In this document: piece by piece, positions 7,738 through 62,823 of the stretch
Numbering within the stretch: position 1 is the first letter of the stretch
Layout of the letters: each line of letters starts with the position of its first letter
NCBI GenBank assembly: GCA_030650395.1
Contig: JAUSDY010000171.1
Coordinates: 6,554-70,553 of the forward strand
Origin: Acidobacteriota bacterium
Lineage (GTDB): Bacteria; Acidobacteriota; Vicinamibacteria; Vicinamibacterales; UBA2999
DNA length: 64,000 bases
Reading direction: 5' to 3'
Made by a program: the position numbers and the translations under genes
The notes under the pieces: model-generated
What the model was told of the DNA's origin: nothing
Databases searched by the model: none
Seen by the model: the letters and a program-made list of their open reading frames with translations, nothing else

Positions 7738-10482
7738 CTTCACCAACTGTCTCAGCACGTACGGCAGGATGCCGCCGTGTGAGAACGCGGTGAGCTCTTC
7801 CGGCGTGTCGATGCGGGCGAGCGCGGTGAAGGTCTTGACCGAGCCGTCCTCCGCCGTCGCCATCACCGCGATCTCGGCGCGCGCCTTGAGCGACGCACCC
7901 GCGCCGGCAAACGCAAACACCTCGCGGCCGGTGAGGCCGAGCGACGCGGCGCCCTGGCCGTCCTTGAACTGCAGCGGCAGCACGCCCATGTTGACGAGGT
8001 TGCTGCGGTGAATGCGCTCGTAGCTTTCCGCCATCACCACCTTCACGCCGAGCAGCATCGTGCCCTTGGCGGCCCAGTCGCGCGACGAGCCGGAGCCGTA
8101 CTCCTTGCCGGCGATCACCACGAGCGGCACTCCGGCCGACTGATAGCTCATGGCCGCGTCATAGATGGGCATCACGTCGCCGCCCGGAAGATATGCCGTC
8201 ACGCCGCCTTCCACGCCGGGGACCATCTGGTTCTTGATCCGCGTGTTGGCAAAGGTGCCGCGCATCATCACTTCGTGGTTGCCGCGCCGGGCGCCGTAGG
8301 AATTGAAGTCCTTCGGCTCCACGCCGTGCTCGATCAGGTACTTGCCGGCGGGGCTGGCGGCCTTGATGCCGCCGGCCGGCGAGATGTGATCGGTCGTGAT
8401 GCTGTCGCCGAGCAGCGCCAGCGCGCGCGCGCCGCGAATATCCGAGGCCGGCGCCGGCGTCATCGACAGGTTCTCGAGGAACGGCGGTTTGCGAATGTAG
8501 GTCGAGGTGTTGTCCCACGCAAAGCGATCGCCGACAGGCACCGGCAGCGTCTGCCACCGCACGTCGCCGTCGAACACGCTCGCATACTGCTGGCGATACG
8601 CCTCGGACGTGACGGCATGGAGCATCGCCGCCTGGATCTCTTTTTCCGTCGGCCACACATCCTTGAGATACACGGGCTTGCCTTCGATGCCGATGCCGAG
8701 CGGCTCGGTGGTGATGTCGATCGTCATCGATCCCGCCAGCGCATAGGCGACGACCAGCGGCGGTGACGCGAGGTAATTGGCGCGCACTTCCTGCTGGATG
8801 CGGCCTTCGAAGTTGCGGTTACCGCTCAGCACCGATGCCACTACCAGGCCCCGCTCCGCGATTTCAGCCGAGACCTCCTCGGGCAGCGGGCCGCTGTTGC
8901 CGATGCAGGTGGTGCACCCGTAGCCCACCAGATTGAAGCCGATCTGATCGAGATACGTGTCGAGGCCGGCCTTCTTCAAGTAATCGGTCACGACCTTCGA
9001 CCCCGGCGCCAGGCTGGTCTTGACCCACGGCTTGCGCGTCAGCCCGAGCTCGACCGCCTTCTTGGCGACAAGACCCGCGCCGATCATCACGCTCGGATTC
9101 GACGTGTTGGTGCAGCTGGTGATCGCGGCGATCACGACCGAACCATGTTCGAGCTGCGTCGCGGTGGCAACGGCTCCCTGCCCTGACCCTTCGACAGGCT
9201 CAGGGTCACCCCGAGCGGAGCCGAGGGGTGAGCGAGCTTCGGGGTTTTCCCCGAAGCGAGTCGAAGGCACGCCCTTCTTCAAGTCCGCCAGCGCGCCGGC
9301 GAACGATGCCTTGGCCTTGGTCAACGGGACGCGGTCCTGCGGGCGACGCGGGCCCGCGAGACTGGGCACCACGGTTCCGAGATCGAGCTCCACCGATTCG
9401 GTATACACCGCGTCGGGCGACTGGGCCGTCCTGAAGAGGCCCTGCGCCTTCGCGTAGCCTTCCACCAGCGCGATCTGCCGCTCGTCGCGCCCGGTCAGGC
9501 GCAGGTATTCGAGCGTCATGTCGTCGATCGGGAACATCGCGACGGTGGCGCCATACTCGGGGCACATGTTGCCGAGCGTCACGCGGTCGGCAATCGTGAG
9601 ATGCGCGAGGCCAGGCCCGTAGAACTCGACGAACTTTCCCACCACGCCGTGCTTGCGAAGCGCTTCGGTGATCGTCAGCACGAGGTCGGTGGCGGTGGCC
9701 CCTTCGGGCAGCTTACCCGTCAGGCGATAGCCCAGCACCAGAGGAATCAGCATCGAGCTCGGCTGGCCCAGCATCGCCGCTTCGGCCTCGATGCCACCCA
9801 CGCCCCATCCAACGACCCCAAGGCCATTGACCATCGTGGTGTGCGAGTCGGTGCCGAACACCGTGTCGGGATAGGCGACCGCCGTGCCGTTGACTTCGTC
9901 GCGACAGACGACGCGCGCCAGGTATTCGATGTTGACCTGGTGCACGATGCCGGTCTCGGGCGGCACGACGCGAAAGTTGCGGAACCCGGTCTGGCCCCAG
10001 CGCAGGAACACGTAGCGCTCCCGATTGCGGTGGTACTCGAGGCTCGCGTTCAGCTCGAGCGCGTTGCTGGTGCCGAAATGATCGACCTGCACCGAGTGAT
10101 CGATCACGAGCTCGACCGGCTGCAGGGGGTTGACCTTGTGCGGATCGCCGCCGAGGGCGACGATGCCGTCACGCATGGCGGCCAGATCGACCACACAAGG
10201 CACGCCGGTGAAATCCTGCAGCAGGACCCGGGCCGGCATGAACGACATTTCCTTTTCGCCGATCGTCTTCGGATCCCACGACGCCAGCGCCGTGATGTCG
10301 GCGGCTTTCACAAAGCCGTTGTCTTCACGCCGCAACAGGTTCTCGAGCAGGATCTTGAGCGAATACGGCAGCCGCGCCACGCGGGGAAACGCCTGTTCGA
10401 GTGCGGGCAGGCTGTAGATGCTGACGGTGTCGGTGCCGATGGATAACGACGTGCGGGTCTTGAAGCTATCGAGGCTGGACAT
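7723..10482 (-). CDS. acnA: aconitate hydratase A
   Basis: [13 protein letters not shown] and [12 protein letters not shown] Fe-S ligand motifs, full-length aconitase/IRP architecture. ATG 10482 is preceded by AGGAG; the upstream ORF extension to 10566 overlaps the neighbouring gene. Confidence 0.95.
9188..9267. repeat. compound palindromic element inside acnA coding sequence
   Basis: ccttcgacaggctcaggg + tcaccccgagc-gga-gccgaggggtga + gcgagc + ttcgggg-tttt-ccccgaa + gcgagtcgaagg. Translated in frame as ...[23 protein letters not shown]... Confidence 0.8.
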
Positions 10483-21800: not shown

Positions 21801-22790
21801 TCATTGTATCTGGGTCCTCGATAAGACTCTGACCGCCGACCACCCGCCCAGCCCGACGTTCGCGTAGCGATAATCGTTGAGCCAGATGCCCGACGGTTCG
21901 ACGGCGGCAAATGGCAAGCGTGACCAGGCGAGGTAGGCGCGCGCGAGTGGTGTTTGCAACGCGGGTTGAACGGCGGGGTCGTCGAGGTGCGTGTCGATGC
22001 CAAATCCGGATGGTCGAAAGTGCGGCAGCGGTTCGAACCACACGAGGCCTTTTTCGTAGCGGCCGCCGGCGTCGATCACCACTTCCCGTTTGAACGGGTT
22101 CACCAGCACAGGCGTGACCATGAACCGCGTCGACGCGGGACGCCCCGCGCGCACGAGGCCACCTTGCACCTCAGCGCGCGCCAGCAGGTTCGATCCGAGC
22201 ATCACGGCCATGTAGACCGTCGCGATTGCGACGCCGATTCGCGCCGGTTGCGCCGCGTCGGCGTCGCCGCGTTTCTGGCGTCGTGAGGCCAGCCACCATC
22301 CGAAGCCGAGCGCGAGGTACAGCCAGGGATCGACGATGTACAGGGCATCGCCGTAGAACCAGCGGTCCGAAAACGGCATCAACAGCCGCACGCCGTAGCT
22401 GTTGAGGAAGTCCATGAAGACGTGGGCGAGCACGCCGATATACGCCAGCAGCGCAAGCTCGCCAAACTTCGCAGGGGACAGCCCCTGCCCTGAGCGAGCG
22501 ACGTCGCGCGTTTCGCGCGACGTCGAGAGTCGAAGGGTCCGTTGAAGAACAAGGCGGTCGTAGGCAAGCATCACTCCGGTCAACACCAGCGGCAGCACCG
22601 CTTGCGCCAGCACGCCGTGCGTCCAGCCGCGGCGGAACGACATCACCAGTGTGTTGGTCGCGAAGACCGCGACGTCGATGTCGGGCAGGTTGTTGGCGAT
22701 GACGAGCGTGCTCATGCCGAGCGTCGTGCGCCTGGCCAGGCCGGCTTTGCCGAGCGCCGCGCCCATCAGCGAGTGACAGACGTTATCCAC
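21801..22790 (-). CDS. YdjM-like membrane-bound metal-dependent hydrolase (DUF457)
   Basis: MDNVCHSLMGAALGKAGL N-terminus, multiple TM segments, conserved His/Asp (NLPDIDV, WTHG, HVFMDFLN). GTG start. Confidence 0.7.
   Translation of the reverse strand: MDNVCHSLMGAALGKAGLARRTTLGMSTLVIANNLPDIDVAVFATNTLVMSFRRGWTHGVLAQAVLPLVLTGVMLAYDRLVLQRTLRLSTSRETRDVARSGQGLSPAKFGELALLAYIGVLAHVFMDFLNSYGVRLLMPFSDRWFYGDALYIVDPWLYLALGFGWWLASRRQKRGDADAAQPARIGVAIATVYMAVMLGSNLLARAEVQGGLVRAGRPASTRFMVTPVLVNPFKREVVIDAGGRYEKGLVWFEPLPHFRPSGFGIDTHLDDPAVQPALQTPLARAYLAWSRLPFAAVEPSGIWLNDYRYANVGLGGWSAVRVLSRTQIQ
22474..22537. repeat. flank-conserved/variable-stem element inside the YdjM-like CDS
   Basis: ccctgagcgagc + perfect 11-bp hairpin gacgtcgcgcg-ttt-cgcgcgacgtc + gagagtcgaaggg. 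Translated in frame as ...LRLSTSRETRDVARSGQGLSP... Confidence 0.85.
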
Positions 22791-24587: not shown

Positions 24588-25523
24588 ATGACACGAATCC
24601 TTCGACTCGCCCATCGGGCGCGCTTCGCGACGACCCGATGGGCTCGCTCAGGACAGGTCGTTCTCGTGGTCGCGCTGCTGGCCTCAATTACGGCCTGCAG
24701 CAAGGGCGGAACCCCGACCTCACCCACGCCCCCGACACCGGATACACGCACGCAGGCCATTTTTTACACGGCGATCGGCGCCAGCGATGGCCTTGGGGTT
24801 GGCAGTTCCTCGGCTTGCTTTCTGTTCTCAGAATGCCCGGACGGAAAAGGTTACGTTCAGATTCTGCTGGCCCGGCTTCGCGACGGAGGCAGGACCGTCG
24901 GTCACAGCAACCTAAGCATTCCGGGCTCGGTTCTGAGCAAAGCGGTCTTTGACCTGGCCGCGTCGGTGGGGCGGCCTATTGATCAACTGGCCGGTAACTT
25001 CATCGAGCGCGAGGCGCCTTTTGTGCGTCCCGAAACCACGCATGTGACCATTTTCGCGGGCGGTAATGATGCCAACACCATCGCGTTTGCCGCGCGCTCG
25101 CGCGGTGGGTCGGATCCAACGGCGTATGTGAATGATCAAGTTCGTCAGTGGGGCACCGACCTCGAGGATCTGGTCGCCCGTATCCGCAGCCGTGCTCCCA
25201 ACGCGCGCATCGTCGCGCTCAACCTGCCGAACCTGGCGGCGTCGCCGTATCTTGCGGGGAACCCGCCCTCGGAAAAGAGCCTGATGCAGCGCGTCGCGGT
25301 CGGGCTCTCGGATCGCGTGAATGCCCTCACCTCGCGCAATGTGCTCGTCGTCGATCTGATGTGCGACGCGCGCCTCTATCTGTCGTCGAACTACGCCGCC
25401 GACGGCTTCCACCCCAACGACGGCGGCTACGCCGTCTTCGCCGAGCTGGCCTTGCCGGCGTTGCGGGACGGTACGAGCCGAGCGCCGTCAACCACCTGCG
25501 CTCAGCGAACCGTTTTCCCCTAA
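24588..25523 (+). CDS. SGNH/GDSL-family hydrolase lipoprotein
   Basis: Lipobox LLASITAC, block I AIGASDGLG, block III FAGGNDAN, block V DGFHPND. Confidence 0.75.
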   Translation: MTRILRLAHRARFATTRWARSGQVVLVVALLASITACSKGGTPTSPTPPTPDTRTQAIFYTAIGASDGLGVGSSSACFLFSECPDGKGYVQILLARLRDGGRTVGHSNLSIPGSVLSKAVFDLAASVGRPIDQLAGNFIEREAPFVRPETTHVTIFAGGNDANTIAFAARSRGGSDPTAYVNDQVRQWGTDLEDLVARIRSRAPNARIVALNLPNLAASPYLAGNPPSEKSLMQRVAVGLSDRVNALTSRNVLVVDLMCDARLYLSSNYAADGFHPNDGGYAVFAELALPALRDGTSRAPSTTCAQRTVFP

Positions 25524-28073: not shown

Positions 28074-30293
28074 ATGCGCGCCCTGCCCGCCCTTGTCTTC
28101 GTCATCGCGTTTGTGGTCCGGCTTGTCCACATCTGGCAGATCAAGCCGTCGCCGTTTTTTGACGTCCTGCTCGGCGACGCGGGCGGCTACGACGAGTGGG
28201 CGCGGCGGCTGGCGGGCGGCGACTGGATCGGCAGCGACGTGTTCTACCAGGCCCCGCTCTATCCATACTTTCTCGGCGTTCTCTATAAGCTGTTCGGCCA
28301 CGATCTGCTGATCGTCCGCATCTGCCAGGCGGCGATCGGGTCGGCGTCGTGCGCGCTGCTCGCGCTCGCGGGCGGGCGGCTCTTCTCGCCGCGGGTCGGG
28401 CTCATTGCCGGCCTCGCGCTTGCGCTCTACGCGCCGGCGGTGTTCTTCGACGCGCTGCTCCAGAAGTCGGTGCTCGACATGTTCTTCGTCTGCCTCAGCA
28501 TCTGGCTGGTCTCGCGAATTCTTGCTGGCTCGTCGACGCGGGCGTCGTGGATCGCGCTCGGGCTCGCAATGGGTGCCCTCGCGCTCACACGGGAAAACGC
28601 ACTCAGCTTCATTGCGGTGATTGTTGTCTTCGCCGTCGTTCAGAAGGGTTCAGAAGGGTTCAGAGGGGTTCTGAAAGGTTCTGACGGGTTCGGAAAGGTT
28701 CGGAAAGGTTCGAACCCTTCAGAACCCTTCAGAACCCTTCAGAACCATTCAGAACCATTCAGAACCTTTCAGAACCTCGGATGGTTTGTGGTCGGCTTGG
28801 CCGTGGTGTTGCTACCGGTAGCGATCAGGAACTATTCGGTAGGTGGCGGGCTGTATCTAACGACGTCGCAGTTCGGATCGAACTTCTACATCGGCAACCA
28901 TGCCGGAGCCGATGGCACATACGCGTCGATCCGGTTTGGCCGCGGCGCGCCGGAGTTCGAGCGGCAGGATGCGACGGAGGTGGCCGAGCAGGCCGTCGGC
29001 CGCAGCCTCACGCCGTCGGAGGTCTCGGCCTACTGGACCGATCGCGCTCTCCTTTTCATCACGTCACAGCCTGCCGAGTGGATCGCGCTGACCGGACGCA
29101 AGATCAGGCTGCTCGTCAATCGCTCGGAGATGCTCGACACCGAAAGCCAGGAGAGTTACGCCGAGTGGTCGTGGCCGCTGCGGATCGGCGGTTGGATCGG
29201 GCATTTCGGCGTGCTGGTGCCGCTGGCGCTGCTTGGAGTGATGGTGACGTGGCCGGAACGGCGCCGCCTCTGGATCCTCTACGCGATGGCGATCGCCTAC
29301 GCGGCCAGCGTGGTGATGTTCTATGTGTTCGCGCGCTATCGCTATCCGCTGGTGCCATTCCTGCTGTTGTTTGCGGCAGCCGGTGTGGCGTTGCCCTTCG
29401 ACTCAACATTTCGCGAGTACCTCGCGAAATGTTTCGCTCAGGGTTCGCGTCGATGGCAACTGGCGGCAATTTCGATCGCTGTTACCATTTTTGCGAATTG
29501 GCCTGTGTTGTCATCGACGCTCATGATGGCCATCACCGAGAACAATCTCGGCACGGCGTTGCAGGACGCCAAACGCTACGACGAGGCCGTCGTCCATCAC
29601 GAGCGCGCGGTCGCCTTGCAGCCGGATTACGCGCCGGCGTACAACAACCTCGGGGCCGCGCTACGCGCCGCCGGCCGTCTCGACGAAGCGGTCGCGCAGT
29701 ATCAGAAGGCGCTCGCGCTCAAGCCCGACTTCGGCAACGCGAGTTACAACCTCGCCAACGCCCTGCTCGAGCGCGGCCAGGCCGGCGCGTCGGTCGACGA
29801 GTTTCGGAAGGCGATTCAATTGACGCCCGATTCCGTGCAGGCGCACAACAACCTCGGAATCGCGCTGGCGGCCAAAGGCGATGCGGCGGGCGCGATGGCC
29901 GAGTTCCGCGCCGCGATCGCCCTCGACGGCACCTCGGTGCAGGCCCATCGCAATCTCGGCAACATGCTGGTCGACCGCGGCGAGCGGGCCGAGGGCATGG
30001 CTCACCTCGAGCGCGCGGTGCAGGTCGCGCCGGGCGAAGCCGACGCGCTCTTCGACATCGGCAGCATCCTGCTGCAGGAGCAGGATTTCAAGGGCGCCGC
30101 CGGGCGATTTCAGGCGGCGCTGCAAATCAAGCCCGACTCGCCCGAGACGTTGAACAACCTCGGGATCGCGTTCGCCAATCAGGGCAAGATCGCCGACGCC
30201 CTCACCTACTTCGAGCGCGCACTCAGCTTGCGGCCCAACTTCAACGACGCTCGCGTGAATCGTGATCAGGCTCGCGCCGTCCTCAAGAAATAA
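28074..30293 (+). CDS. membrane glycosyltransferase (GT39/PMT-ArnT-like) fused to C-terminal TPR repeats
   Basis: Multi-TM N-terminal half with a typical start (VVRLVHIWQIKPSPFFDVLLGDAGGYDEWA). The C-terminal ~280 aa are consecutive TPR units (YNNLGAALRAAGRLDEAVAQYQKALALKPDF...). Confidence 0.8.
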   Translation: MRALPALVFVIAFVVRLVHIWQIKPSPFFDVLLGDAGGYDEWARRLAGGDWIGSDVFYQAPLYPYFLGVLYKLFGHDLLIVRICQAAIGSASCALLALAGGRLFSPRVGLIAGLALALYAPAVFFDALLQKSVLDMFFVCLSIWLVSRILAGSSTRASWIALGLAMGALALTRENALSFIAVIVVFAVVQKGSEGFRGVLKGSDGFGKVRKGSNPSEPFRTLQNHSEPFRTFQNLGWFVVGLAVVLLPVAIRNYSVGGGLYLTTSQFGSNFYIGNHAGADGTYASIRFGRGAPEFERQDATEVAEQAVGRSLTPSEVSAYWTDRALLFITSQPAEWIALTGRKIRLLVNRSEMLDTESQESYAEWSWPLRIGGWIGHFGVLVPLALLGVMVTWPERRRLWILYAMAIAYAASVVMFYVFARYRYPLVPFLLLFAAAGVALPFDSTFREYLAKCFAQGSRRWQLAAISIAVTIFANWPVLSSTLMMAITENNLGTALQDAKRYDEAVVHHERAVALQPDYAPAYNNLGAALRAAGRLDEAVAQYQKALALKPDFGNASYNLANALLERGQAGASVDEFRKAIQLTPDSVQAHNNLGIALAAKGDAAGAMAEFRAAIALDGTSVQAHRNLGNMLVDRGERAEGMAHLERAVQVAPGEADALFDIGSILLQEQDFKGAAGRFQAALQIKPDSPETLNNLGIAFANQGKIADALTYFERALSLRPNFNDARVNRDQARAVLKK
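28638..28777. repeat. 140-nt composite palindrome of 10-nt words inside the GT39/TPR coding sequence
   Basis: 7 x gttc(a/t/g)ga(a/g/c)(a/g)g, centre ggttcgaacc (28708-17), then 7 x c(c/a/t)ttcagaac. Translated as KGSEGFRGVLKGSDGFGKVRKGSNPSEPFRTLQNHSEPFRTFQN between two TM segments. Confidence 0.9.
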
Positions 30294-37243: not shown

Positions 37244-38581
37244 TTAGCGCGGAAAGCGTCCGAGCGCGACGAGCAATTCCAGGCGCGCTTGCCGCACCGC
37301 ATCCTCGCCCTGCGCGACGATGGTCTCGAGATCGCGCACCGAGCGTTGCGCATCGATCACCTCGATGTTGGTCGTGGACCCGGCATCGAAGGCGATGATC
37401 GTGATCTTCAAGACTTCGTTGGCGTGCTGTGCCGCCTGCCGCGCGCGCACCAGCGCGCGCTCCTGGGCCTCGACCGCCGCGCGCGCGACGCGCACTTCCG
37501 ACCGCGCCCGGATCTGCACCTGCTCCAGTGAGAACGACGACGCCTGCAAGCTCGCCTCGCGCTGGCGCCGCACCGCGCGGCGCGAGCCGGCGTCGTAGAG
37601 CGGCTGCGACACCTGGAACGACAGGCTCCAGCTGCGCGACGGCTGAAAGAGGCCCGACGGCGCGAGCAGCTGCGGGCCGAAGGTGACGGCCGCCGCCGGC
37701 CACCAGTCTTTCGAGCTGTCGTGAACGACCCGATCGCTCGCCTCGCGTTCGGCGGTGAACAGCTGCACGTCGGTTCGACCCGGCATCCATTCAGCCTCGG
37801 CAGTTTCAACCGGCACCTCGAAGGCCGGCTCGCCATTCACATCGACCGGCGCATTCGCGGCCAGCAGAACACCGAGCGCCTCTTGCGCGCGCCTGACGTT
37901 GAGGCGAAAGATTTCGACCAGCGCTTCGTTGCTCGCGAGGATCTGCGCCGACCGCAGCTCGTTCAACCGGCTGCCGACGCCGCCTTCACGCCGCCTGGTG
38001 TTGTAGTCGAGTTGTCCGCGCGCGGTCTGGATCGCGTTCACGCTCACCTCGACCTGCCGCTTCTGCGCGATCACGGCAAGATAGGCTGACGCGGTCGCGA
38101 CCGCGATTTGGCGGCGCGTCTCTGTGGTCGACAGGCGCGCAATCTCGACCTGGTCGAGCGCCTGCGCGCGTGCGGCCCACTGTGCGGCCGCGAGGATGGG
38201 CGCGGTGGCCGAGAGTCCGAACAGGGTCTGGTTCTGCGGCTGCACCGTTTCGCCGCCGAACGAGCGGCCGCTGTCGAGCGTGGTGTTGGTGATGTTGGCG
38301 CCGAGGCGCGGCATCACCGCCGCGCGGACCTGCTGCAGGATGGCTTCGGAGCGCAGGATGTTGGTCGAGGCAATCGCGATCGTCGGGTTCTTCTCCAACG
38401 CGCGCGCGATGGCCTCGTCGAACGTCACGGTTTCCACGGGTACCCCGAGGGCTTGAGGGCTCGAGGGCTTGAGCCTGCCCTGAGCGAAGGTGACTCCGCT
38501 TGCGGAGTCGGCTGAGTCGAAGGGGGCTTGAGAGCCCTGCGCCAACGCAGGCGTGGCGAACGACACCGCCAGCAACAACAT
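37244..38581 (-). CDS. alternative model: separately initiated TolC/OprM-like outer-membrane efflux protein
   Basis: In-frame ATG 38581 (GTG 38584) opens MLLLAVSFATPALAQG..., followed by two OMF repeat halves. This model is nested in the long ORF. Confidence 0.4.
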   Translation of the reverse strand: MLLLAVSFATPALAQGSQAPFDSADSASGVTFAQGRLKPSSPQALGVPVETVTFDEAIARALEKNPTIAIASTNILRSEAILQQVRAAVMPRLGANITNTTLDSGRSFGGETVQPQNQTLFGLSATAPILAAAQWAARAQALDQVEIARLSTTETRRQIAVATASAYLAVIAQKRQVEVSVNAIQTARGQLDYNTRRREGGVGSRLNELRSAQILASNEALVEIFRLNVRRAQEALGVLLAANAPVDVNGEPAFEVPVETAEAEWMPGRTDVQLFTAEREASDRVVHDSSKDWWPAAAVTFGPQLLAPSGLFQPSRSWSLSFQVSQPLYDAGSRRAVRRQREASLQASSFSLEQVQIRARSEVRVARAAVEAQERALVRARQAAQHANEVLKITIIAFDAGSTTNIEVIDAQRSVRDLETIVAQGEDAVRQARLELLVALGRFPR

Positions 38582-41500: not shown

Positions 41501-41728
41501 CATGCCCTCGACGCCGTTGATGGCCTGCTCGAGCGGGGTGGTCACCGCGCTCTCGACGGCTTGCGCGTTGGCACCGGTATAGAACGCGGACACCGTGACC
41601 GCCGGCGGCGCCAGGTCCGGATAGCGGGCAATCGGCAGCGTCGGAATCGACACCGCGCCGGCGAGGATGATCAGCAGCGAGCAGACCGTTGAGAGGACGG
41701 GCCTGCGAATGAACACGTCGGCCATCAT
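37244..41728 (-). CDS. RND (AcrB/MexB-type) efflux permease continuing without a stop codon into a TolC/OprM-like outer-membrane factor (single 1494-codon ORF)
   Basis: The first ~1048 codons are typical HAE1 RND (MMADVFIRRPVLS...). Then come a G/S/P/A linker, a signal-like segment VMLLLAVSFATPALA-QG and ~430 codons of OMF repeats. No in-frame stop separates them. Confidence 0.8.
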   Translation of the reverse strand: MMADVFIRRPVLSTVCSLLIILAGAVSIPTLPIARYPDLAPPAVTVSAFYTGANAQAVESAVTTPLEQAINGVEGMSYMTSSSTNSGFATITVTFDVDRDQDLAAVDVQNRVNQALGRMPAEVRQNGISVVKVASGFIGGLGFFSKDNRYSSLFISNYIDLYIRDAIKRVPGVGDVIVFGERKFAMRLWLDPSKLAGHNITAADVLGALREQNVQVAAGALGDAPATVGQQYTISVRAMGRLSEAPEFEDVVVKAGKDGALVRVKNVGRVELGAETYSSNLRFLGLEAQGIGISLLPSANAIEVFRGVVAEMDRLKLSFPPGLEWQVAFDNVVVVRESIVEVLWTLAEAIGLVILVMFLFLQNWRSTIIPAITIPVSLIGTFAFIKLFDFSINTLTLFGIVLATGIVVDDAIVVIENIERHMREFHKSARQAAVDAMREVFGAVVVIGIVLVAVFVPVAFFPGVTGRLYQQFSLTIAFSVVLSVFNAVTLTPALAALLLDKESHTHGRFFTGFNRVVDAGTNGYVRLVRGALRLRYAMLLLFAGGLWATWTVFQMVPSSFVPQEDEGFFMAIVQAPAGASLEYSTEIAKKAEQILYADKDVAAAFSVMGFSFSGAAPNNGMIFVRLKDYAERPNADQSLSAVLQRLSGPLFMIPGAIVVAFPPPSIQGVGAFGGFQFEVLDQTGSNDINTLAGATFGLMGAANQSGKVQGAFSSFRADDPQLIVDIDRDKARSLGLPLREVTDALQVFLGSQYVNDFDFNNRAYRVYVQADQRFRASPTDLKQLYARASSGDMIPLDSVVRLRETTAPQVISHFNLFRSAEISGNPPPGQSSGQTLQAMEDLARANLPPGFDFAWAGQSLEERRAGGQAGLIFGLSLLLVYLVLSAQYESFVLPLIILLGVPLAVFGALSAQLVRGFNNDVFCQVGLVLLVGLAAKNSILIVEFAEQLRGRGLSIVDAAIESARIRLRPILMTSLAFVLGVLPLALATGAGAAARNSVGTAVAGGMLASTFLSIVFIPVLYVVIRSIAPGRGRRSGSSGSPAPAAAGAVMLLLAVSFATPALAQGSQAPFDSADSASGVTFAQGRLKPSSPQALGVPVETVTFDEAIARALEKNPTIAIASTNILRSEAILQQVRAAVMPRLGANITNTTLDSGRSFGGETVQPQNQTLFGLSATAPILAAAQWAARAQALDQVEIARLSTTETRRQIAVATASAYLAVIAQKRQVEVSVNAIQTARGQLDYNTRRREGGVGSRLNELRSAQILASNEALVEIFRLNVRRAQEALGVLLAANAPVDVNGEPAFEVPVETAEAEWMPGRTDVQLFTAEREASDRVVHDSSKDWWPAAAVTFGPQLLAPSGLFQPSRSWSLSFQVSQPLYDAGSRRAVRRQREASLQASSFSLEQVQIRARSEVRVARAAVEAQERALVRARQAAQHANEVLKITIIAFDAGSTTNIEVIDAQRSVRDLETIVAQGEDAVRQARLELLVALGRFPR
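38445..38537. repeat. compound element (GGGCTTGA words + flank-conserved/variable-stem unit) inside the OMF coding region
   Basis: gagggcttgagggctcgagggcttgag + ccctgagcgaagg-t-gactccg-cttg-cggagtc-ggct-gagtcgaaggg + ggcttgagagccc. Translated as SQAPFDSADSASGVTFAQGRLKPSSPQALG. Confidence 0.85.
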
Positions 41729-46323: not shown

Positions 46324-47535
46324 TCACTGAGCGGTCATGTTGGGACGACCCTGTCGGAGAACGTACTTCTGTATTTTCCCGGTGGCGGTCTTCGGTAACT
46401 CCGCGATCGGGGTAAAGCCGTGCGGCACCTTGAAGTGGGCCATGTTCGCCCGGCAAAACTCGCGCAATGCCTCGGCGGTAGCCGACTGGCCGCTCTTGAA
46501 CACCACGAACGCGTGCGGCGCCTCGCCCCATTTGTCGTGGGGCAGCCCGACGACGGCGGCTTCCTGGATGGCGTCGTGGCGAAGCAGCATGGCCTCGACT
46601 TCGACCGATGAAATGTTCTCGCCGCCGCTGATAATCACGTCCTTCAGCCGATCGGTGATCTGGACGTAGCCGTCGGGGTGCACGACCGCGGCATCGCCGG
46701 TGTGAAACCAGCCGTCGCCCATGCATTTCGCGGTGGCCTCGGGGTCGTTGTAGTACCCCGCCATGATGACGTTGCCGCGGGCGATGATTTCTCCCGCGGA
46801 CGTGCCGTCCGCGGGCACCTCTCGGCCGTTTTCGTCCACCACCCGCAGCTCGCCGGAGGTGATGAGCTCGACGCCCTGGCGAGATTTGATGCGGGCGCGG
46901 TCCGACGCGCCGAGCGCGTCGTGTTCGGGCAGCGGCTCGCAGATGCTGATGGCCGGGGCGGTTTCGGTGAGGCCGTAGATCTGCGTCACGGTCCACCCCA
47001 TCTCGCCCTCGATGCGCTCGATCGTCACGGCCGCGGGCGGCGCGCCGGCCGTCATCACGCCCACGCCGCGCGGCAGCCCGGCCTTCACCTCCGCGGGCGC
47101 GCTGGCCAGCATGATCAGCACGGTGGGCGCCGCGCACATCCGTGTGATGCGCTCGTCCTTCACCAGCCGGAACACGGTCGCGGCCTCGAGCTTGGATCCG
47201 GGGCCCCCACCACGCGTACTTTGCGTGGTGGGGTGGAGGCACACGTGCGTCGCGCCGGCGGCCGTCACCGTCCACGTGAACGTCCAGCCGTTGGCGTGGA
47301 ACATCGGCAGCGTCCACAGGTAGCGATCGCGCGGCGTCATCGGCGTGTGCACCAGCATGCCGACGCAGTTCATCCACGCGTTGCGATGCGTGATCATCAC
47401 GCCCTTGGGACGCGACGTGGTGCCGCTGGTGTAGTTGATCGTCAGCAGATCGCGCTCGCCGATCGCGGGCGGCGTGAAGCGCGCCGTCGCCGCGGCGACG
47501 AGCGTTTCGTAATCGAGCCATCCTTCTCTCGACAA
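46324..47535 (-). CDS. acyl-CoA synthetase (AMP-binding enzyme), C-terminal 403-codon fragment
   Basis: Contains INYTSGTTSRPKGVMITH and the remaining AMP-binding/C-terminal domain motifs. Separated from its N-terminal part by an in-frame TGA. The only start available is TTG 47535. Confidence 0.65.
   Translation of the reverse strand: MSREGWLDYETLVAAATARFTPPAIGERDLLTINYTSGTTSRPKGVMITHRNAWMNCVGMLVHTPMTPRDRYLWTLPMFHANGWTFTWTVTAAGATHVCLHPTTQSTRGGGPGSKLEAATVFRLVKDERITRMCAAPTVLIMLASAPAEVKAGLPRGVGVMTAGAPPAAVTIERIEGEMGWTVTQIYGLTETAPAISICEPLPEHDALGASDRARIKSRQGVELITSGELRVVDENGREVPADGTSAGEIIARGNVIMAGYYNDPEATAKCMGDGWFHTGDAAVVHPDGYVQITDRLKDVIISGGENISSVEVEAMLLRHDAIQEAAVVGLPHDKWGEAPHAFVVFKSGQSATAEALREFCRANMAHFKVPHGFTPIAELPKTATGKIQKYVLRQGRPNMTAQ
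47198..47238. repeat. 41-nt CCACCACGCG hairpin element inside the acyl-CoA synthetase fragment
   Basis: ccggggc-ccccaccacgc-gtacttt-gcgtggtgggg-tggag, 39/41 identical to the intergenic copy at 54794-54834. Translated as HPTTQSTRGGGPGS. Confidence 0.9.
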
Positions 47536-47555
47536 ACCTCAAGGTTTGTCGCCAC
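47530..47555 (-). repeat. GTGG-headed stem-loop (REP-like) that interrupts the acyl-CoA synthetase reading frame
   Basis: Minus strand reads gtgg-cgacaaacc-ttga-ggtttgtcg. The loop TGA (47539-41) is the in-frame stop. A 21-nt tandem duplication (47551-71 / 47572-92) is adjacent. Confidence 0.9.
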
Positions 47556-47979
47556 CTCGGTCGAGCGCGACGCCACCTCCGTCGAGCGCGACGAAGTGCG
47601 TGACATCAGGCAGGCTGGCGCGGATGGAATCCACCGCGTCGAGGTAGTCGGCCGACGCGCACACCACCTTCGCGCCGCTGTGTTGGATCAGGTATTTGAA
47701 GTCGTCCGCAATCAACCGGAAGTTGAGCGGCACCAGCACGGCGCCCATCTGGGGCACCGCATAGAACGCCTCGAGCTGCGCGTGCGAGTTCGGCGCGATG
47801 TAAGCGACCCGGTCGCCGGGGCCGACGCCCATTTCGTGCAGGACGCTCGACCACCGATCGCAGCGATCGCCGAACGCCTCGTAGGTCCAGCGCTCCGCGC
47901 CATCAACGACCGCTTCGCGATTGCCGTGAAGCCGCCGCGCACGGCGCATGAATTCCAGTGGGGTCAGCGCCACTTCCAT
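47539..47979 (-). CDS. acyl-CoA synthetase (AMP-binding enzyme), N-terminal 146-codon fragment
   Basis: MEVALTPLEFMRRARRLHGNREAVVDG...VAYIAPNSHAQLEAFYAVPQMGAVLVPLNFRL is a typical N-terminus of medium-chain acyl-CoA ligases. It ends at the TGA in the hairpin loop. Confidence 0.65.
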   Translation of the reverse strand: MEVALTPLEFMRRARRLHGNREAVVDGAERWTYEAFGDRCDRWSSVLHEMGVGPGDRVAYIAPNSHAQLEAFYAVPQMGAVLVPLNFRLIADDFKYLIQHSGAKVVCASADYLDAVDSIRASLPDVTHFVALDGGGVALDRGGDKP

Positions 47980-47997
47980 AGTGCGCGGGATTGTAGT

Positions 47998-48116
47998 TGA
48001 GTTCAGAGTGCAGCGTTAAGAGTTAAGAGTTAAGAGTTAAGAGTTAAGAGTTAAGAGTTAAGAAAAATGCCTCGAGTTCGGAGTTCTTAACTCTAAACTC
48101 TTAACGCTGAACTCAG
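47998..48116. repeat. tandem-word composite palindrome (7 x GTTAAGA heptamers)
   Basis: tgagttcag(agtgcag)cgttaagag pairs with ctcttaacgctgaactca. The left arm carries 7 GTTAAGA units (48015-63) against about 2 in the right arm. Confidence 0.9.
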
Positions 48117-56502: not shown

Positions 56503-57557
56503 CGCTGGCGCTGCTTCCTGAAGTACTCGACCTGCCAGGTGAAGACGTTCTGATTGTGCTCCTCGAGCGTCGTCGCAAACGCGTGCGTGCCGTCGTTCTT
56601 GCTGACGAAATACACGTAATCAACCGGCGCCGGGCGCACCGCGGCCTGTAACGACGCCCGACCGGGTGAGGCGATCGGTCCGGGCGGCAAGCCCGGATAA
56701 CGATAGGTGTTGTAGGGCGAATCGAGCTGCAGGTCCTCGCGCCTCAGGTTGCCGTTGTATCTCCCGGCCTTCTGCAACGCGTAGATCACCGTCGGGTCCG
56801 CCTGCATCGCCATACCCATCGTCATGCGGTTGCGATACACCGCCGCGACGATGGGACGCTCGTCGGGCGTGCCCGTTTCTTTCTCGACCAGCGCCGCGAG
56901 CGTGACCACTTGACGCACCGTCAGGCCGTCGGCGGCTGCGGCAGCGCGCAGTTCGTCGTCGAACGCCTTCTTGAACCCCGTCACCATCGATCCCACGACG
57001 TCACGGGCCGACGTGCCGCGCGGCAAGGCGTAGGTCTCGGGAAATAAATAGCCTTCGAGATCGCGCGCGGCCGGGTCGAGATCGCGGATCGCAGCCGGAT
57101 CGGACGCCGCCTGGACGAATTCGGCTGCCGAGCCAAATCCTTTTTGCTCGAAGACGGCGGCCATCTCGGCAATCGTGAGGCCTTCACGAAACGTCAGCAA
57201 GCGCCGGTAGATGTCGCCACGCCTGATCTTGTCAATGACCTCGAGCGCGTCGATGGGCTTGTCATAACGATACTCACCAGCCTTGAGCTCGCGGGCCCGC
57301 CCGCTGATCAAGACCGCGGCGCGAAACGTCCACGGATCGCGGACGATGCCGGCGTCGACCAGGCGCTGGCCGATGCCGACCGGGCCGGTGCCGTTTGGAA
57401 TGTCGACGAACTGCTCGGCGCCCGTGTATCCCCGATACGGCTCGTTCACCCGAGAGTAGATCCACCAGCCCGCCGCCCCGAACACCACGAGCGCCAACAC
57501 CAGCAGCAGCGCCAGTCGCTTCAACCATCGCACCCTTCGACTCGGATGGCTCGTCAT
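56499..57557 (-). CDS. mltG: endolytic murein transglycosylase MltG (YceG-like)
   Basis: N-terminal TM anchor and YceG domain (LDSPYNTYRYPGLPPGPIASPG). ATG 57557 overlaps the ruvX stop. Confidence 0.85.
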   Translation of the reverse strand: MTSHPSRRVRWLKRLALLLVLALVVFGAAGWWIYSRVNEPYRGYTGAEQFVDIPNGTGPVGIGQRLVDAGIVRDPWTFRAAVLISGRARELKAGEYRYDKPIDALEVIDKIRRGDIYRRLLTFREGLTIAEMAAVFEQKGFGSAAEFVQAASDPAAIRDLDPAARDLEGYLFPETYALPRGTSARDVVGSMVTGFKKAFDDELRAAAAADGLTVRQVVTLAALVEKETGTPDERPIVAAVYRNRMTMGMAMQADPTVIYALQKAGRYNGNLRREDLQLDSPYNTYRYPGLPPGPIASPGRASLQAAVRPAPVDYVYFVSKNDGTHAFATTLEEHNQNVFTWQVEYFRKQRQR

Positions 57558-58009
57558 GCCGAGCCATCCTCGCTCAGGGCGGGCTTTCGCCCGTCCAGAT
57601 AGTCCTGCAGGATGACGGCCGCGGCGGCGGCGTCGAGCTTCTTCTTCCGCTTGCGCCAGTCGGGCTCGCGCCTCGCGAGGCGTGCCTCGGCCTCGTGGCT
57701 CGACAATCGTTCGTCCTGCAGAATCACGGGCACCGGCACCTGCGCTTCCAGCGCGCGCGCGAAAGTTTCCACAATGGGGGTTTGATCGTTCGGCGTGCCG
57801 TCGAGGCGTCGCGGCCAGCCCACCACCACCGCCTCGAGCCCCTCGTCTGCCTTGGCGAGCGCCGCAATCTCCGCCACTACGAGGCGCATCGTTTCCGCGT
57901 CGGAGGGCGGCTTCTGCAGCAGCCGCCACGGCGAGGCCAGCGTGGCGGTGGCGTCGCTCAGCGCCAGGCCGATGCGCCGCGCGCCGTAATCGATCCCAAG
58001 CACTCGCAC
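57554..58009 (-). CDS. ruvX: Holliday-junction resolvase-like / pre-16S rRNA nuclease YqgF
   Basis: VLGIDYGARRIGLALSD signature. GTG 58009 gives 151 aa; the ORF extends to 58111. Confidence 0.8.
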   Translation of the reverse strand: MRVLGIDYGARRIGLALSDATATLASPWRLLQKPPSDAETMRLVVAEIAALAKADEGLEAVVVGWPRRLDGTPNDQTPIVETFARALEAQVPVPVILQDERLSSHEAEARLARREPDWRKRKKKLDAAAAAVILQDYLDGRKPALSEDGSA

Positions 58010-60336: not shown

Positions 60337-60608
60337 TGAACAAGCAGGACCTGATCGCGAAGATCGTGAAAGAGACCGGCGCCAGCAAGGCGCACGCTTC
60401 GCGAATCGTCACCGTCCTGCTCGCCGCGGTGACCAAGGCCCTCAAGAAGGGCGAGCCGGTGACCTTCGTCGGCTTCGGCACCTTCAAGACCGCCATCCGG
60501 AAGGCGCGCCAGGGGCGCAACCCGCTGACGGGCGGCGCCATCAGGATCCCCAAGCGCAAGACCGTCCGCTTCTCTGCGGGCAAGGCCCTCAAGAAAGCGG
60601 TCAACTGA
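60336..60608 (+). CDS. hup: HU family DNA-binding protein
   Basis: MNKQDLIAKIVKETG...FVGFGTFKTAIRKARQGRNPLTG is the canonical HU/IHF fold. 90 aa. Confidence 0.9.
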   Translation: MNKQDLIAKIVKETGASKAHASRIVTVLLAAVTKALKKGEPVTFVGFGTFKTAIRKARQGRNPLTGGAIRIPKRKTVRFSAGKALKKAVN

Positions 60609-60609
60609 C

Positions 60610-60635
60610 AGGCGGGTCTAAAGACCCGCCTCTAC
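60610..60635 (-). repeat. GTAG-headed stem-loop (REP-like) immediately after hup; possible terminator
   Basis: aggcgggtc-taaa-gacccgcct-ctac (inverted orientation), followed 7 nt later by ttttt. Confidence 0.85.
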
Positions 60636-60678
60636 TGCTATACTTTTTGTTCGGCTTTGAGCCGAAATCGCACGAGAT

Positions 60679-60755
60679 AGGCGCGTAGCTCAGCTGGTTA
60701 GAGCGCCTCCCTGACACGGAGGAGGTCGATAGTTCGAATCTATTCGCGCCTACCA
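60679..60755 (+). tRNA. tRNA-Val (anticodon GAC)
   Basis: Cloverleaf read by hand. Acceptor aggcgcg/cgcgcct, D-arm gctc-agctggtta-gagc, anticodon arm cctcc-ctGACac-ggagg, T-arm gatag-ttcgaat-ctatt, encoded CCA. Confidence 0.9.
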
Positions 60756-60803
60756 TTCGACTCACCTGCGTTCCGCCTTCGGCGAACCGCAGGTTCGCTC
60801 ATG
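60756..60803 (-). repeat. flank-conserved/variable-stem element (inverted orientation) abutting the tRNA 3' end
   Basis: Reverse complement reads ccatgagcgaac + ctgcggttcgcc-gaag-gcggaacgcag + gtgagtcgaa. Confidence 0.8.
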
Positions 60804-60825
60804 GCGGGCCCTGTAGGTCGAATGT

Positions 60826-60873
60826 CCTGAGCGAGCGGTTTGGTCACGGAGTGACCAAAATGCGAGTCGAAGG
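60826..60873 (+). repeat. flank-conserved/variable-stem element in the thrS leader
   Basis: cctgagcgagcg + g-tttggtcac-gga-gtgaccaaa-at + gcgagtcgaagg. Confidence 0.85.
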
Positions 60874-60888
60874 ACCGCGCCATCACTC

Positions 60889-62823
60889 ATGAGTCAAGTC
60901 ACAGTTACGCTTCCCGACGGATCGACGAAACAAGTCGAGTTCGGCGCGCCCGTCAGGGCTGTCGCCGAGGCGATCTCGCCACGCCTGGCCGATGCGGCCC
61001 TCGCCGCCTTCGTCGACGACAAGATGGTGGACCTGTCGCATCCGCTCACCAAGGACGCATCGGTGCGGATCGTCACCAACAAGTCACCGGAAGCCCTCGA
61101 GCTCTATCGCCACTCGACGGCGCACTTACTGGCCGCGGCGGTCACGACGCTGTTCCCGGGTACGCAGTGCGGCGTCGGCCCGCCGATCGATGACGGCTTC
61201 TTCTACGACTTCGTCGTCGAGCGCCCGTTCGTGCCCGAGGATCTCGAAGCCATCGAAAAGAAGATGCGGGAGCTCGCATCGCAGGACCTGGTGTTCGAGC
61301 GCCAGCTGTGGCCGCGGCAGGAAGCGATCGACTTCTTCAAGAAGCGCGGCGAGCCGCTCAAGGTCCAGTTGATCGAAGAGAAGACCGCCGGCCAGCCGGA
61401 AGTGTCGGTCTACACGATCAAAGACAAAGACACCTTCCTGGATTTTTGCGTCGGTCCGCATGTGCCGGCGACGTCGAAGCTGAAGGCGTTCAAGCTGACA
61501 ACGACGTCGAATGCGTACTGGAAAGGCGATGCGAAGAACCAGCCGATGCAGCGCGTCTACGGCACGGCGTTCTTCACGCAGAAGGAGCTCGACGAGCACG
61601 TGACGCGGCTCGAGGAAGCGAAGAAACGCGATCACCGCAAGGTCGGCAAGGAGCTCGGTCTCTTTACCTTCCATCCCTGGGCGCCCGGCGCGGGCTTCTG
61701 GCTGGGCAAGGGCACGACCCTGTACAACACGCTCGCCGACTACATGCGCGGCCGCCTCTTCCCCGCCGGCTACGACGAGGTCAAGACGCCGATCATCTAC
61801 AACAAGGCGCTGTGGGAGCTCTCGGGCCACTGGTCGCATTACCGCGAGAACATGTTTCTGGTGAAGTCGGCCGACGGCGAGGAGATGGGCCTCAAGGCGA
61901 TGAACTGCCCCGGGCACTACCTGCTGTTCTCGAGCGACAAGCACAGCTACAAGGAGATGCCGATCCGGTATCACGAGCAGACGCCGCTGCACCGCAACGA
62001 AGCGTCGGGCGTGCTCGGCGGGCTGACGCGCGTCCGCCAGTTTTCGCAGGACGATGCGCATTGCTTCGTGATGGAGGAGCAGATCGCCAGCGAGGTCGAG
62101 GCGTTGCTGCGGTTGATTCAGGGCATCTACGGCGACTTCGGCCTGAGCTACACGGCAAAGCTGTCGACGCGGCCGGAGAAATTCATCGGCGAGATCCCGC
62201 TGTGGGATCGGGCCGAGGGCGCACTCAAAGAGGCGCTCGAAAAGGCCGGGCAGGCGTATTCGATCAACGCCGGCGATGGCGCGTTCTACGGGCCGAAGAT
62301 CGATTTCGACATCACCGATGCGATCGGCCGCAAGTGGCAGTGCGGCACGATCCAGTTGGACTACGTGGCGCCCGAGCGGTTCGACCTCACATATGTCGGG
62401 GCGGACAACGCCGAGCATCGCCCGGTCGTGATCCATCGGGCCATCTTCGGCAGCTTCGAGCGGTTCATCGCGATCCTGATCGAACACTTTGCCGGCGCCT
62501 TCCCCCTTTGGCTCGCGCCCCTGCAGGCCATCGTCCTGCCCATCGCCGACCGGCACCAGGACTACGCCCGCGAGGTAGTCGAGACGCTGAAGGCCGCTGG
62601 GCTCAAGGCCCAGGTCGACGATCGCCAGGAAAAGGTGAATTACAAGATTCGCGAGGCCCAACTGCAGAAAATCCCCTACATGCTGGTGGTGGGCGACCGG
62701 GAAGCCGCCGACCGGGCGGTGGCCGTCCGCAGCCGCGCCAAGGGGGATTTGGGCGCCCGGCCGCTCGACCAGTTCGTCGCCGACGCGCTTGCCGAGATCC
62801 GGTCTAAAGCGTTATCCTTGTAA
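60889..62823 (+). CDS. thrS: threonine--tRNA ligase
   Basis: TGS domain, editing-domain HxxxH (HSTAHLLA), class II catalytic motifs and anticodon-binding domain. 644 aa. Confidence 0.95.
   Translation: MSQVTVTLPDGSTKQVEFGAPVRAVAEAISPRLADAALAAFVDDKMVDLSHPLTKDASVRIVTNKSPEALELYRHSTAHLLAAAVTTLFPGTQCGVGPPIDDGFFYDFVVERPFVPEDLEAIEKKMRELASQDLVFERQLWPRQEAIDFFKKRGEPLKVQLIEEKTAGQPEVSVYTIKDKDTFLDFCVGPHVPATSKLKAFKLTTTSNAYWKGDAKNQPMQRVYGTAFFTQKELDEHVTRLEEAKKRDHRKVGKELGLFTFHPWAPGAGFWLGKGTTLYNTLADYMRGRLFPAGYDEVKTPIIYNKALWELSGHWSHYRENMFLVKSADGEEMGLKAMNCPGHYLLFSSDKHSYKEMPIRYHEQTPLHRNEASGVLGGLTRVRQFSQDDAHCFVMEEQIASEVEALLRLIQGIYGDFGLSYTAKLSTRPEKFIGEIPLWDRAEGALKEALEKAGQAYSINAGDGAFYGPKIDFDITDAIGRKWQCGTIQLDYVAPERFDLTYVGADNAEHRPVVIHRAIFGSFERFIAILIEHFAGAFPLWLAPLQAIVLPIADRHQDYAREVVETLKAAGLKAQVDDRQEKVNYKIREAQLQKIPYMLVVGDREAADRAVAVRSRAKGDLGARPLDQFVADALAEIRSKALSL

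Follow-up and report, generated by a model that had tools for sequence, protein, structure and literature searches.

How can a family of short DNA elements keep its flanks at every copy and yet carry a different hairpin in each of them? The question is raised by a 64-kb stretch of an Acidobacteriota bacterium (contig JAUSDY010000171.1; "the window" below, to whose full length all window positions refer), in which two such elements lie between tRNA-Val and thrS, the sequence of 60756-60873 being as given in a preliminary description of the locus. That description had listed five copies and offered two explanations, namely structural selection with rapid compensatory turnover of each stem, or generation or replacement of the hairpin by a templated mechanism at a conserved docking site. 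We compared the window with loci from relatives and from other genomes, which are denoted by L-numbers (e.g. L120). The elements are, with a probability of roughly 0.7, small non-autonomous DNA hairpin repeats of the repetitive extragenic palindromic (REP) kind, abundant in Acidobacteriota, and their layout fits the CGTC/TGTC-tagged REP superfamily. The private hairpin is not without precedent among REPs and can be explained in ordinary terms, and does not by itself call for a new mechanism.

A conserved base and a private tip

The long form of the element, CTGAGCGA-[hairpin]-GAGTCGAAGG, is present in eight copies in the window and is accompanied by one short form without the hairpin, giving a density of ~9 units per 64 kb. 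All five copies listed earlier were found again with their coordinates and stems, and three more were located at 24599-24650, 29395-29440 and 57534-57576, all on the minus strand. No replication-strand bias was seen (four long forms on each strand of the window, and no signal in GC-skew). When the flanks were compared with shuffled controls, as the preliminary description had advised, it was their combination that stood out: the pattern TGAGCGA-N10-40-GAGTCGAAKG matched 8 times in the window vs 0 in 100 dinucleotide shuffles, and neither single flank was significantly more frequent than expected by chance (16 vs 11.9 and 14 vs 6.4). A covariance model trained on 51 copies, also among the checks proposed there, set nine units apart from the background when the window was scanned with filters off; the eight long forms and the short form (9180-9211, minus strand) all matched at E ≤ 1.2e-4, and the next match had E = 0.13. 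Folded as single-stranded DNA, the eight long forms had z-scores of -2.8 to -6.2. Among non-orthologous copies in the window and in 289 kb of relatives' loci, no tip was held in common, the longest shared string being 10 nt.

Read 5' to 3', a unit often begins with a TGTC tag and consists of a 4-bp closing helix, a purine-rich core and a variable apical hairpin, termed here P2. In the closing helix N-C-C-U pairs with A-G-G-N' (C-G, C-G and U-A plus an outer variable pair), and in the core the 5' GAGCGA lies opposite the 3' GAGUCGA, forming a tandem G·A, G-C/C-G pairs with a bulged T (the U of GAGUC), and another tandem G·A. P2 directly abuts the flanks and is stacked on the core. The conserved 5' flank was previously written as (C)CTGAGCGA followed by (G/A)(C/G)G; the first part stands, but the last three positions are already the first pairs of the variable stem. 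Minimal units without P2 read CTGAGC-NNN-GTCGAAGG, and the CTGAGCGAAGCGAAGG version holds a GCGAAGC mini-hairpin.

Pairs were counted in 51 distinct copies drawn from many genomes. At the outer end of the closing helix the fourth pair (N-N'), which no search pattern contained, is U-A in 31 of these, C-G in 13, U-G in 5 and unpaired in 2, and the core pair C6-G3' has become U-A in 4 copies (L127, L141, L144 and L151; CTGAGTGA…GAATCGAAGG). RNAalifold, applied unaided to 10 orthologues of the copy adjacent to tRNA-Val, recovered this closing helix, both core pairs (G-C and C-G, bulged U included) and P2; compensatory double changes were found at 4 pairs of this copy. P2 pairing statistics over the 51 copies are circular, because the copies were chosen for pairing, and are not used as evidence. 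The element family is statistically real and folds as described, with closing and core helices that covary.

The mismatches in P2 indicate which strand folds. Copies for this analysis were chosen by Watson-Crick pairs alone, which put wobbles on the same footing as other mismatches, and the P2 mismatches comprised 19 G·T vs 6 A·C, and 40 A·G/G·A vs 4 C·T. In copies antisense to local transcription there were 12 G·T vs 4 A·C, and a U·G pair was retained in 7 of 10 orthologues of the tRNA-adjacent copy, on the strand antisense to tRNA and thrS. Relative to flanking genes, 13 copies were co-directional and 14 anti-directional, with 14 between convergent and 4 between divergent genes, all of these being small numbers from crude gene calls. 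The folding strand is the CTGAGCGA…GAAGG strand, whatever the direction in which the locus is transcribed. The even orientation and the strand-bound mismatch bias together argue against a directional RNA element, and favour a property that belongs to the DNA strand of the element itself or to a spreading intermediate.

The element has no match among known RNA families. With Rfam 15 at the gathering threshold, the window and 18 element-rich loci gave only tRNA (and a 6S RNA in L127), and at E ≤ 10 there was no match in 60600-60950, hammerhead, twister and Acido-type motifs included. The 6S RNA gene lies at 9402-9586 of L127 (RF00013, 85.5 bits). A literature search by DNA and peptide strings of the element returned primers only.

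Orthologous loci and spread across genomes

The long form in the aconitase gene, which itself is on the minus strand, lies antisense at 9228..9267 on the plus strand, with the hairpin GCTTCGGGG TTTT CCCCGAAGC. This copy carries GTGAGCGA, has a poor closing helix, and encodes 13 residues, in frame, in a variable surface loop. Aconitase homologues, with identities of up to 94% by BLASTP (96% over a MAFFT alignment), assign the window to Vicinamibacterales. The closest relative (L122; 96% aligned amino-acid identity) has no element in this part of the protein, L120 and L121 each carry a long form at an identical point, its loop and closing G-C pair agreeing with those of the window copy, and others have short or long forms at different codons. 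The stem of the window copy is separated from that of L120 by two compensated double changes (T-A to C-G and G-C to A-T), and 4 of 39 nt differ as against 37% of 4-fold sites, so that this copy evolves more slowly than neutral sequence. Across 120 aconitase homologues the short form (peptide PSTGSGQ) is found at several different codons of the loop, which implies repeated independent gains filtered by protein tolerance. The loop in the window also contains a short form without apical hairpin at 9187..9205 on the minus strand (CCCTGAGC-CTG-TCGAAGGG; 26 bits, E 3e-5) and, between the two aconitase units, a degenerate short-form-like unit (CCCCGAGCGGAGCCGAGGGG; 9210..9228, plus strand) that was called by eye only. 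Three units therefore adjoin each other in 9187-9267 (short on the minus strand, degenerate short, long on the plus strand), and ~9 ancestral codons are replaced by ~31.

Turnover of units is seen at several other sites. L157 and L158 are 97% identical over ~13.6 kb, and 2 of their 4 indels of at least 12 nt are gains of 21-nt mini-elements, one in aconitase (short form) and one in QueG (GTAG type). The QueG (epoxyqueuosine reductase) unit, at 6520 of L157 as compared with L158, is an in-frame GTCCGCC-GTAGC-CTGG-GC-GAA-GGCGGA, with the adjacent codons altered too. A long form at 5515-5581 of L122 is absent from the window. The ruvX-mltG copy, intact in the window, is absent in six other relatives; in L150 its flanks and 3' arm have decayed, and in L151, where the flanks have decayed too, one compensated pair and two G·T preserve the hairpin. 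Each of the four filled/empty pairs has replaced bases next to the element, with no target duplication and no clean junction. Units are thus gained, lost and decayed between close relatives. The idea of structural selection with rapid compensatory turnover was borne out by compensatory changes in the aconitase, tRNA-Val and ruvX-mltG copies, but not in its rate (4/39 nt vs 37%): compensatory evolution is real but slow. Orthologous loci, compared for stem replacement as suggested earlier, showed mostly compensated pairs. Occasional wholesale remodelling of the tip is also real, since the second tip of the doublet between tRNA-Val and thrS could not be aligned between clades and hairpins nested within the same flanks occur.

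This doublet lies between tRNA-Val(GAC) (60679..60755, plus strand) and thrS (threonyl-tRNA synthetase; 60889..62823, plus strand) and has one unit in each direction (60754 and 60828). The left unit (60753..60804, minus strand; 32.8 bits, E 3.4e-7) reads CCAU-GAGCGA-[ACCTGCGGTTCGCC GAAG GCGGAACGCAGGT]-GAGUCGA-AUGG on the minus strand; the stem reported at 60756-60803 is present, but with one bulged G and arms of 12 and 11 nt. It does not start directly after the tRNA CCA, as had been thought: its closing helix uses the CCA itself (60753-60755), overlapping the tRNA end, and the 3' arm of this helix is complementary to the tRNA CCA+T. The right unit (60825..60874, plus strand; 40.1 bits; TGTC tag at 60823-60826) reads UCCU-GAGCGA-[GCGG TTTGGTCAC GGA GTGACCAAA ATGC]-GAGUCGA-AGGA, and the thrS ATG is 15 nt downstream of it. 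A look-up of the exact ThrRS protein sequence found no record. No terminator-like T-run is present. An adaptation of the CCAU/AUGG closing helix to the tRNA CCA was considered and is weakened by the same variant away from any tRNA (L120:1512), which makes it a trait of a subfamily, perhaps with help from microhomology, and no proof of tRNA adaptation. The tRNA 3' end had also been regarded as an integration hot spot. It is not an integrase site, because it is not duplicated in the window, and no integrase was found there.

Comparing the tRNA-Val to thrS spacer over 34 metagenomic orthologues, we found the first (tRNA-proximal) element in 10 spacers, 9 of which (the window included) also have the second; L152 has the first only. 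The hairpin of the first element is alignable throughout, with compensations. That of the second is homologous within clades and unalignable between them, being a bare GCGGAGC in L136 and missing in L152, and in L127 a further element separates the two. Most other spacers have different hairpin elements at the same two places, and those of L139 and L123 have no element whatsoever. These different elements read, after tRNA-Val, CCA|ACCTTCGC-loop-GCGAAGGT, then TGTC, then CACC-GTAGC-hairpin-GAAGGTGG; ACCTTCGC/GAAGGTGG-type units were recorded in L126, L128-L132, L134, L135, L138, L140, L142, L145-L148, L150, L154 and L155. It therefore seems that REP-type units from more than one family have settled in this spacer time and again. 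The doublet itself is probably a tail-to-tail REP dimer that was vertically inherited across related genera, a statement for which we give the same odds as for the REP-like explanation as a whole.

An exact-pattern scan of one genome per species (596 Gb) found at least 119 loci. Matches without hairpin or flank extension were discounted because by our own estimate ~500 chance matches are expected in 596 Gb. Among the matches listed, most were in Terriglobia, Acidobacteriaceae or other Acidobacteriota, and true copies with flank extension and hairpin were also found in Eremiobacterota, Gemmatimonadota, Bacteroidota, Omnitrophota, a Bifidobacterium isolate and Coriobacteriaceae. In viral contigs ~11 of 48 pattern matches are true elements, which is no proof of transfer, and a search of plasmids with the consensus gave 4 weak matches, one of them useful: a plasmid of the alphaproteobacterium Ancylobacter has CGTC-AT-TCTGAAG-…-TCGAAGGAT with an inverted CGTCATCCTGAGG partner. 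The usual extended consensus is cTGTC-AT-CCTGAGCGA-[P2]-GAGTCGAAGG-AT-CTG, or ends in GGA-CCCCTA, and that of Terriglobia is TGTC-AT-CCTGAGCGA…GAGTCGAAGG-AT/AC-C; a second type, gCCTGCC-CTGAGCGA…GAAGG-G, is commonest in Vicinamibacterales and represents 3 of the 8 window copies. The 5' tag is (C/T)GTC in 38 and YGCC in 9 of the 51 distinct copies, and in the window TGTC in 2 of 8 (24599 and 60828), YGCC in 3 and other bases in 3, with some form of YGCC in 4 of 8. After GAAGG, the commonest bases are the CC-rich ACCC (10) and ACCT (9), with window copies variable.

The preliminary description had argued against ordinary repeats on the grounds that copying of a master element would conserve the stem. 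Copies in other genomes do share stems: L109 has six copies with near-identical inner sequences, L043, L085 and L112 have pairs of copies with common stems, and one stem type recurs in at least 10 species among the matches listed. Eight different stems in 64 kb are thus most simply explained by a large, old and diverse family. The recurrent tip, of Terriglobia, is ACGGGGCCCC-NNNN-loop-N'N'N'N'-GGGGGTGGT (in at least 10 species; L001, L002, L009, L018, L019, L042, L061, L065, L100 and L111), and the 4-bp block of this ACGGGGCCCC/GGGGGTGGT tip takes seven values that are always perfectly complementary, without wobble intermediates. Nested forms also exist, with a short-form-like unit between the flanks (e.g. 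CTGAGCGA-[CCGGAGCGCAAGCGCAGG]-GAGTCGAAGG), and the short forms of L150 and L152 are the two flanks exactly joined, CTGAGCGA-AGTCGAAGG. Head-to-head dimers with TGTCAT outside were found in Bifidobacterium (L017) and in a viral contig (L177). Both L177 (an IMG/VR contig of 4.2 kb) and L017 (Bifidobacterium pluvialisilvae) hold dense clusters of units, their head-to-head dimers having TGTCATCCTGAGCG outermost, and the L017 locus additionally has tandem repeats of the 5' half alone.

Relation to REP sequences and alternative explanations

Two REP superfamilies, GTAG- and CGTC-tagged, are distinguished in the survey of Di Nocera et al. (2013, BMC Genomics 14:522; PMC3733652). As characterized there, the CGTC class has a tag that is often TGTC or CCTC, a stem of 8-9 bp opening with two A-T pairs, a loop of 4-5 nt that is variable in a few families, and a 3-nt tail near CCA; its dimers are common and mostly head-to-head, intragenic copies are in frame, and there is no associated transposase. 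Members include RPE-4 and RPE-6 of Rickettsia and dRS3 of Neisseria, and the five phyla that the survey names for CGTC repeats do not include Acidobacteria. For GTAG-3 and GTAG-14 REPs it records variable self-complementary "loops" of up to 27 bp. Set beside this account, our elements resemble CGTC REPs, in part of the copies, in the (C/T)GTC tag, the CC-rich short tail and the A-T first pairs (those of Terriglobia); they also occur as singletons and inverted dimers, at gene ends and in-frame sites and in several phyla, and in the window with no transposase alongside; the alphaproteobacterial plasmid unit, with CGTC-AT-YCTGA…TCGAAGGAT, bridges the two. Unlike in the CGTC class as described, a bulged T and two blocks of tandem G·A interrupt the stem here, a hairpin of 7-15 bp that differs between copies takes the place of the 4-5 nt loop, and the window dimer is tail-to-tail with the tags inside, the rarer type. 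The stem opens as TGTC-AT-CC…GG-AT or GG-AC in Terriglobia (T-A kept in 31 of 51 copies, A-T formed in 5); window copies have no AT dinucleotide, and their basal helix and core span 9-10 positions with 4 G·A mismatches. No 4-5 nt loop was found, since long forms have a self-complementary insert of 15-35 nt and short forms 2-3 nt.

Other known systems share part of this picture. GTAG REPs, BIMEs and REPINs, which RAYT (Y1/HUH) transposases mobilise, are likewise high-copy imperfect palindromes that have inverted doublets and G·T stem pairs and are scarce between divergent genes, whereas the flank here is CTGAGCGA, without a GT(A/G)G tag, and the stems are far more diverse. Rickettsia palindromic elements are also in-frame palindromic units that add a peptide at permissive surface positions of housekeeping proteins; our units are smaller (short form 21-24 nt, long form 40-55 nt), mostly intergenic, and in another host phylum. 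The conserved base with a bulged base, the tip variable in length and sequence, and the strand-specific folding recall integron attC sites, but with no integrase, cassettes or R/L box consensus the resemblance is in the mode of reading and not one of membership. Lastly, the short form CTGA-GCGAAGC-GAAGG contains GCGAAGC, and the L136 tip is GCGGAGC, so that both, as well as the sheared G·A pairs, are reminiscent of d(GCGNAGC) mini-hairpin DNA (PMC13037366), which is however a physical motif and not a genetic element. Several further assignments were rejected. A miniature inverted-repeat transposable element would have terminal inverted repeats of 15-30 bp and a target-site duplication, but single units here have no such repeats, and the four filled/empty comparisons have neither duplication nor a clean junction. 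The arrangement CUGA…GA-stem-GA…GAA recalls the hammerhead core, but has an extra base, no A14/A15.1, no three-way junction and no Rfam ribozyme score. By eye, neither the 3-nt bulge of a kink-turn nor the AGUA/GAA of a loop E or sarcin-ricin core is present, and the D-like and T-like strings that might hint at tRNA-derived flanks are in the wrong order.

Under the REP-like explanation, the element would act as a folded single DNA strand whose conserved base is recognised by a protein in trans, the sole known precedent being an HUH/Y1 transposase of the RAYT/TIRYT type. P2 would lie outside the recognised part and would need only to remain a hairpin; being free to diverge, it would in an old, large family come to differ at almost every copy. 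Several observations weigh against this explanation. The mobilising enzyme is one that we purely infer: the candidate enzymes that the preliminary description suggested seeking (Y1/HUH nucleases, reverse transcriptases) were not found in the 64-kb window, and a Pfam scan of its ~48 open reading frames (ORFs), all of them housekeeping genes, showed no transposase, HUH/Y1 (including RAYT), reverse transcriptase or integrase. Six of the eight window copies have no TGTC, none opens with A-T/A-T pairs, and a full hairpin stands in place of a "loop" of 4-5 nt. Membership in the CGTC class, which is probable, is based on layout and one plasmid example, the consensuses being compared with the published class by description only. 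None of the four filled/empty comparisons is clean, and the replaced bases are unusual for cut-and-paste or Y1 transposition. The slow in-situ evolution of the tRNA-Val and aconitase copies could reflect local function rather than selfish persistence, the second tip of the doublet is unalignable between clades, and the orientation data are crude and few.

We consider it unlikely that the element is a functional structured RNA, that is, a cis-acting module for mRNA or tRNA processing, stabilisation or protein binding in which the tandem-G·A loop is functional, the tip irrelevant and the intragenic copies mere by-products. Retention of the doublet across related genera with compensatory changes, divergence below that of neutral sites, tolerance of G·U-type wobbles, and depletion between divergent genes with enrichment at gene ends would all suit such a module. 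However, the copies have no orientation bias to transcription (13 vs 14), intragenic copies are mostly antisense (11 vs 4 sense; 4 of 4 in the window), and the wobble and purine-purine bias stays on the element's strand when this is not the transcript; moreover, some orthologues decay, and neither an Rfam match nor a terminator-like T-run was found. A site for site-specific recombination that is read by its structure, be it integron attC-like or a phage or island attachment site at a tRNA, is hardly credible. Its conserved base, bulged base and variable tip do recall a folded attC in outline, and one copy abuts a tRNA 3' end, but the content of the window (no integrase, no cassette array, no RYYYAAC/GTTRRRY core sites) already contradicts it, the tRNA 3' end is not duplicated, and the copies are dispersed in housekeeping genes and spacers.

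The two remaining alternatives concern the way in which tips or units arise. If the conserved base were a docking site, it would be a target at whose apex hairpins or units are inserted or exchanged, or the tips would be templated, for instance by intra-hairpin template switching. This is very unlikely, although the exactly joined flanks of the L150 and L152 short forms, the nested units, the second doublet tip (GCGGAGC in L136, absent in L152) and the always perfectly paired 4-bp block of Terriglobia with its 7 values all speak for it, and the nested forms, flank-only short forms and one swapped orthologous tip keep it alive as a minor reading. Against it, most changes in orthologous tips are of one compensated pair at a time and come below the neutral rate, short forms may just as well have arisen by deletion, no candidate enzyme came to light, and the arms match neither the target site nor other sequence. 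Arms copied from the target are rejected by the empty aconitase site, which has no match to them. Arms templated from elsewhere are rejected too: at the level of 13-mers, tip arms matched only orthologues and a few GC-rich chance sequences in 1.2 Mb of the loci compared (10-mers were uninformative because chance matches dominate). Nothing points to the templated origin of the tips that had been proposed. It is likewise quite unlikely that the tandem-G·A base with its bulged T is the recognition module of a novel enzyme system that spreads CGTC-type REPs by a route other than cut-and-paste; candidate routes, sharing in this same low estimate, would be templated repair or insertion of nuclease-resistant mini-hairpin oligonucleotides, or insertion at the hairpin apex. 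If true, such a system would explain the 21-nt gains between 97%-identical strains, the base replacement at filled sites without target duplication, and both the nested units and the tips swapped at one orthologous site.

Gene context of the copies and their meaning

Beyond the aconitase and tRNA-Val copies, the REP-like units of the window occupy the following sites. Three are antisense and in frame: one in a YdjM-family gene (22488..22537, plus strand; hairpin CGACGTCGCGCG TTT CGCGCGACGTCG), one between the PMT_2 and TPR domains of a glycosyltransferase-like gene (29394..29443, minus strand; AACATTTCGCGAG GTA CTCGCGAAATGTT), and one just after the signal peptide, in the N-terminal linker, of an outer-membrane efflux protein, encoding PFDSADSASGVTFAQGR (38478..38524, plus strand). 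The three in-frame copies known earlier (9229, 22491 and 38481) were confirmed, and 29395 is likewise in frame. Two copies are sense: one at, or immediately upstream of, the start of an AMP-binding enzyme gene (its 5' end; 24598..24653, minus strand; 42.1 bits, TGTC tag), with the hairpin GCCCATCGGG...CCCGATGGGC and an inner CGCGAAGCGCG, and one at the ruvX/mltG junction (57533..57579, minus strand; 42.6 bits). In the latter the ruvX stop codon, TGA (57554-57556), lies in the loop of the element, and the last RuvX residues are thus encoded by its 5' arm. Read antisense, the element is stop-free in every frame; read sense, it has a TGA in one frame. Intragenic copies survive solely in permissive loops and linkers, mostly in the stop-free orientation.

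Some neighbouring features of the window were also noted. The AcrB-type pump gene next to the efflux protein reads stop-free into it, so that 37244-41728 (minus strand) is a single ORF of 1494 codons, in which the efflux protein still has a start and a signal peptide (MLLLAVSFATPALAQ) of its own. At 46324-48015 (minus strand) an in-frame TGA (47539-47541) divides a gene of the AMP-binding (acyl-CoA synthetase-like) kind into two adjoining ORFs. This TGA is part of the loop between the arms of a perfectly paired 8-bp stem, GACAAACC-TTGA-GGTTTGTC, and a pseudogene, recoding or one more small hairpin insertion could account for it. At 3641-3714, between convergent copper-ATPase and peptidase M49 genes, there is an inverted doublet of a separate hairpin family, with the units CGCC-GAAGC-hairpin-GGA-GGCG and CGCC-GTAGC-hairpin-GAA-GGCG, which resemble GTAG-tagged REPs. 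This GTAG-type family (P1-GTAGC-hairpin-GAA-P1') coexists with the element studied here in the window and in relatives, and is distinct from it.

The element family is absent from Rfam and, going by the phyla named in the survey of Di Nocera et al., appears to be undescribed for Acidobacteriota. It adds a well-defined and very widespread REP-type family, whose specific fold combines a bulged T with two blocks of tandem G·A, to a phylum missing from that survey's account. The units repeatedly lengthen housekeeping proteins, namely aconitase, YdjM, the RuvX C-terminus, the efflux protein and, through a GTAG-type unit, QueG; in annotations, spurious ORFs and odd "PSTGSGQA / PERSE…SKG" peptides are to be expected. 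The filled and empty sites in near-identical strains bear on a question posed in the literature, whether and how transposase-less CGTC-class repeats still form today, and the main value of the family lies in the material that it offers on the spread of transposase-less REPs.

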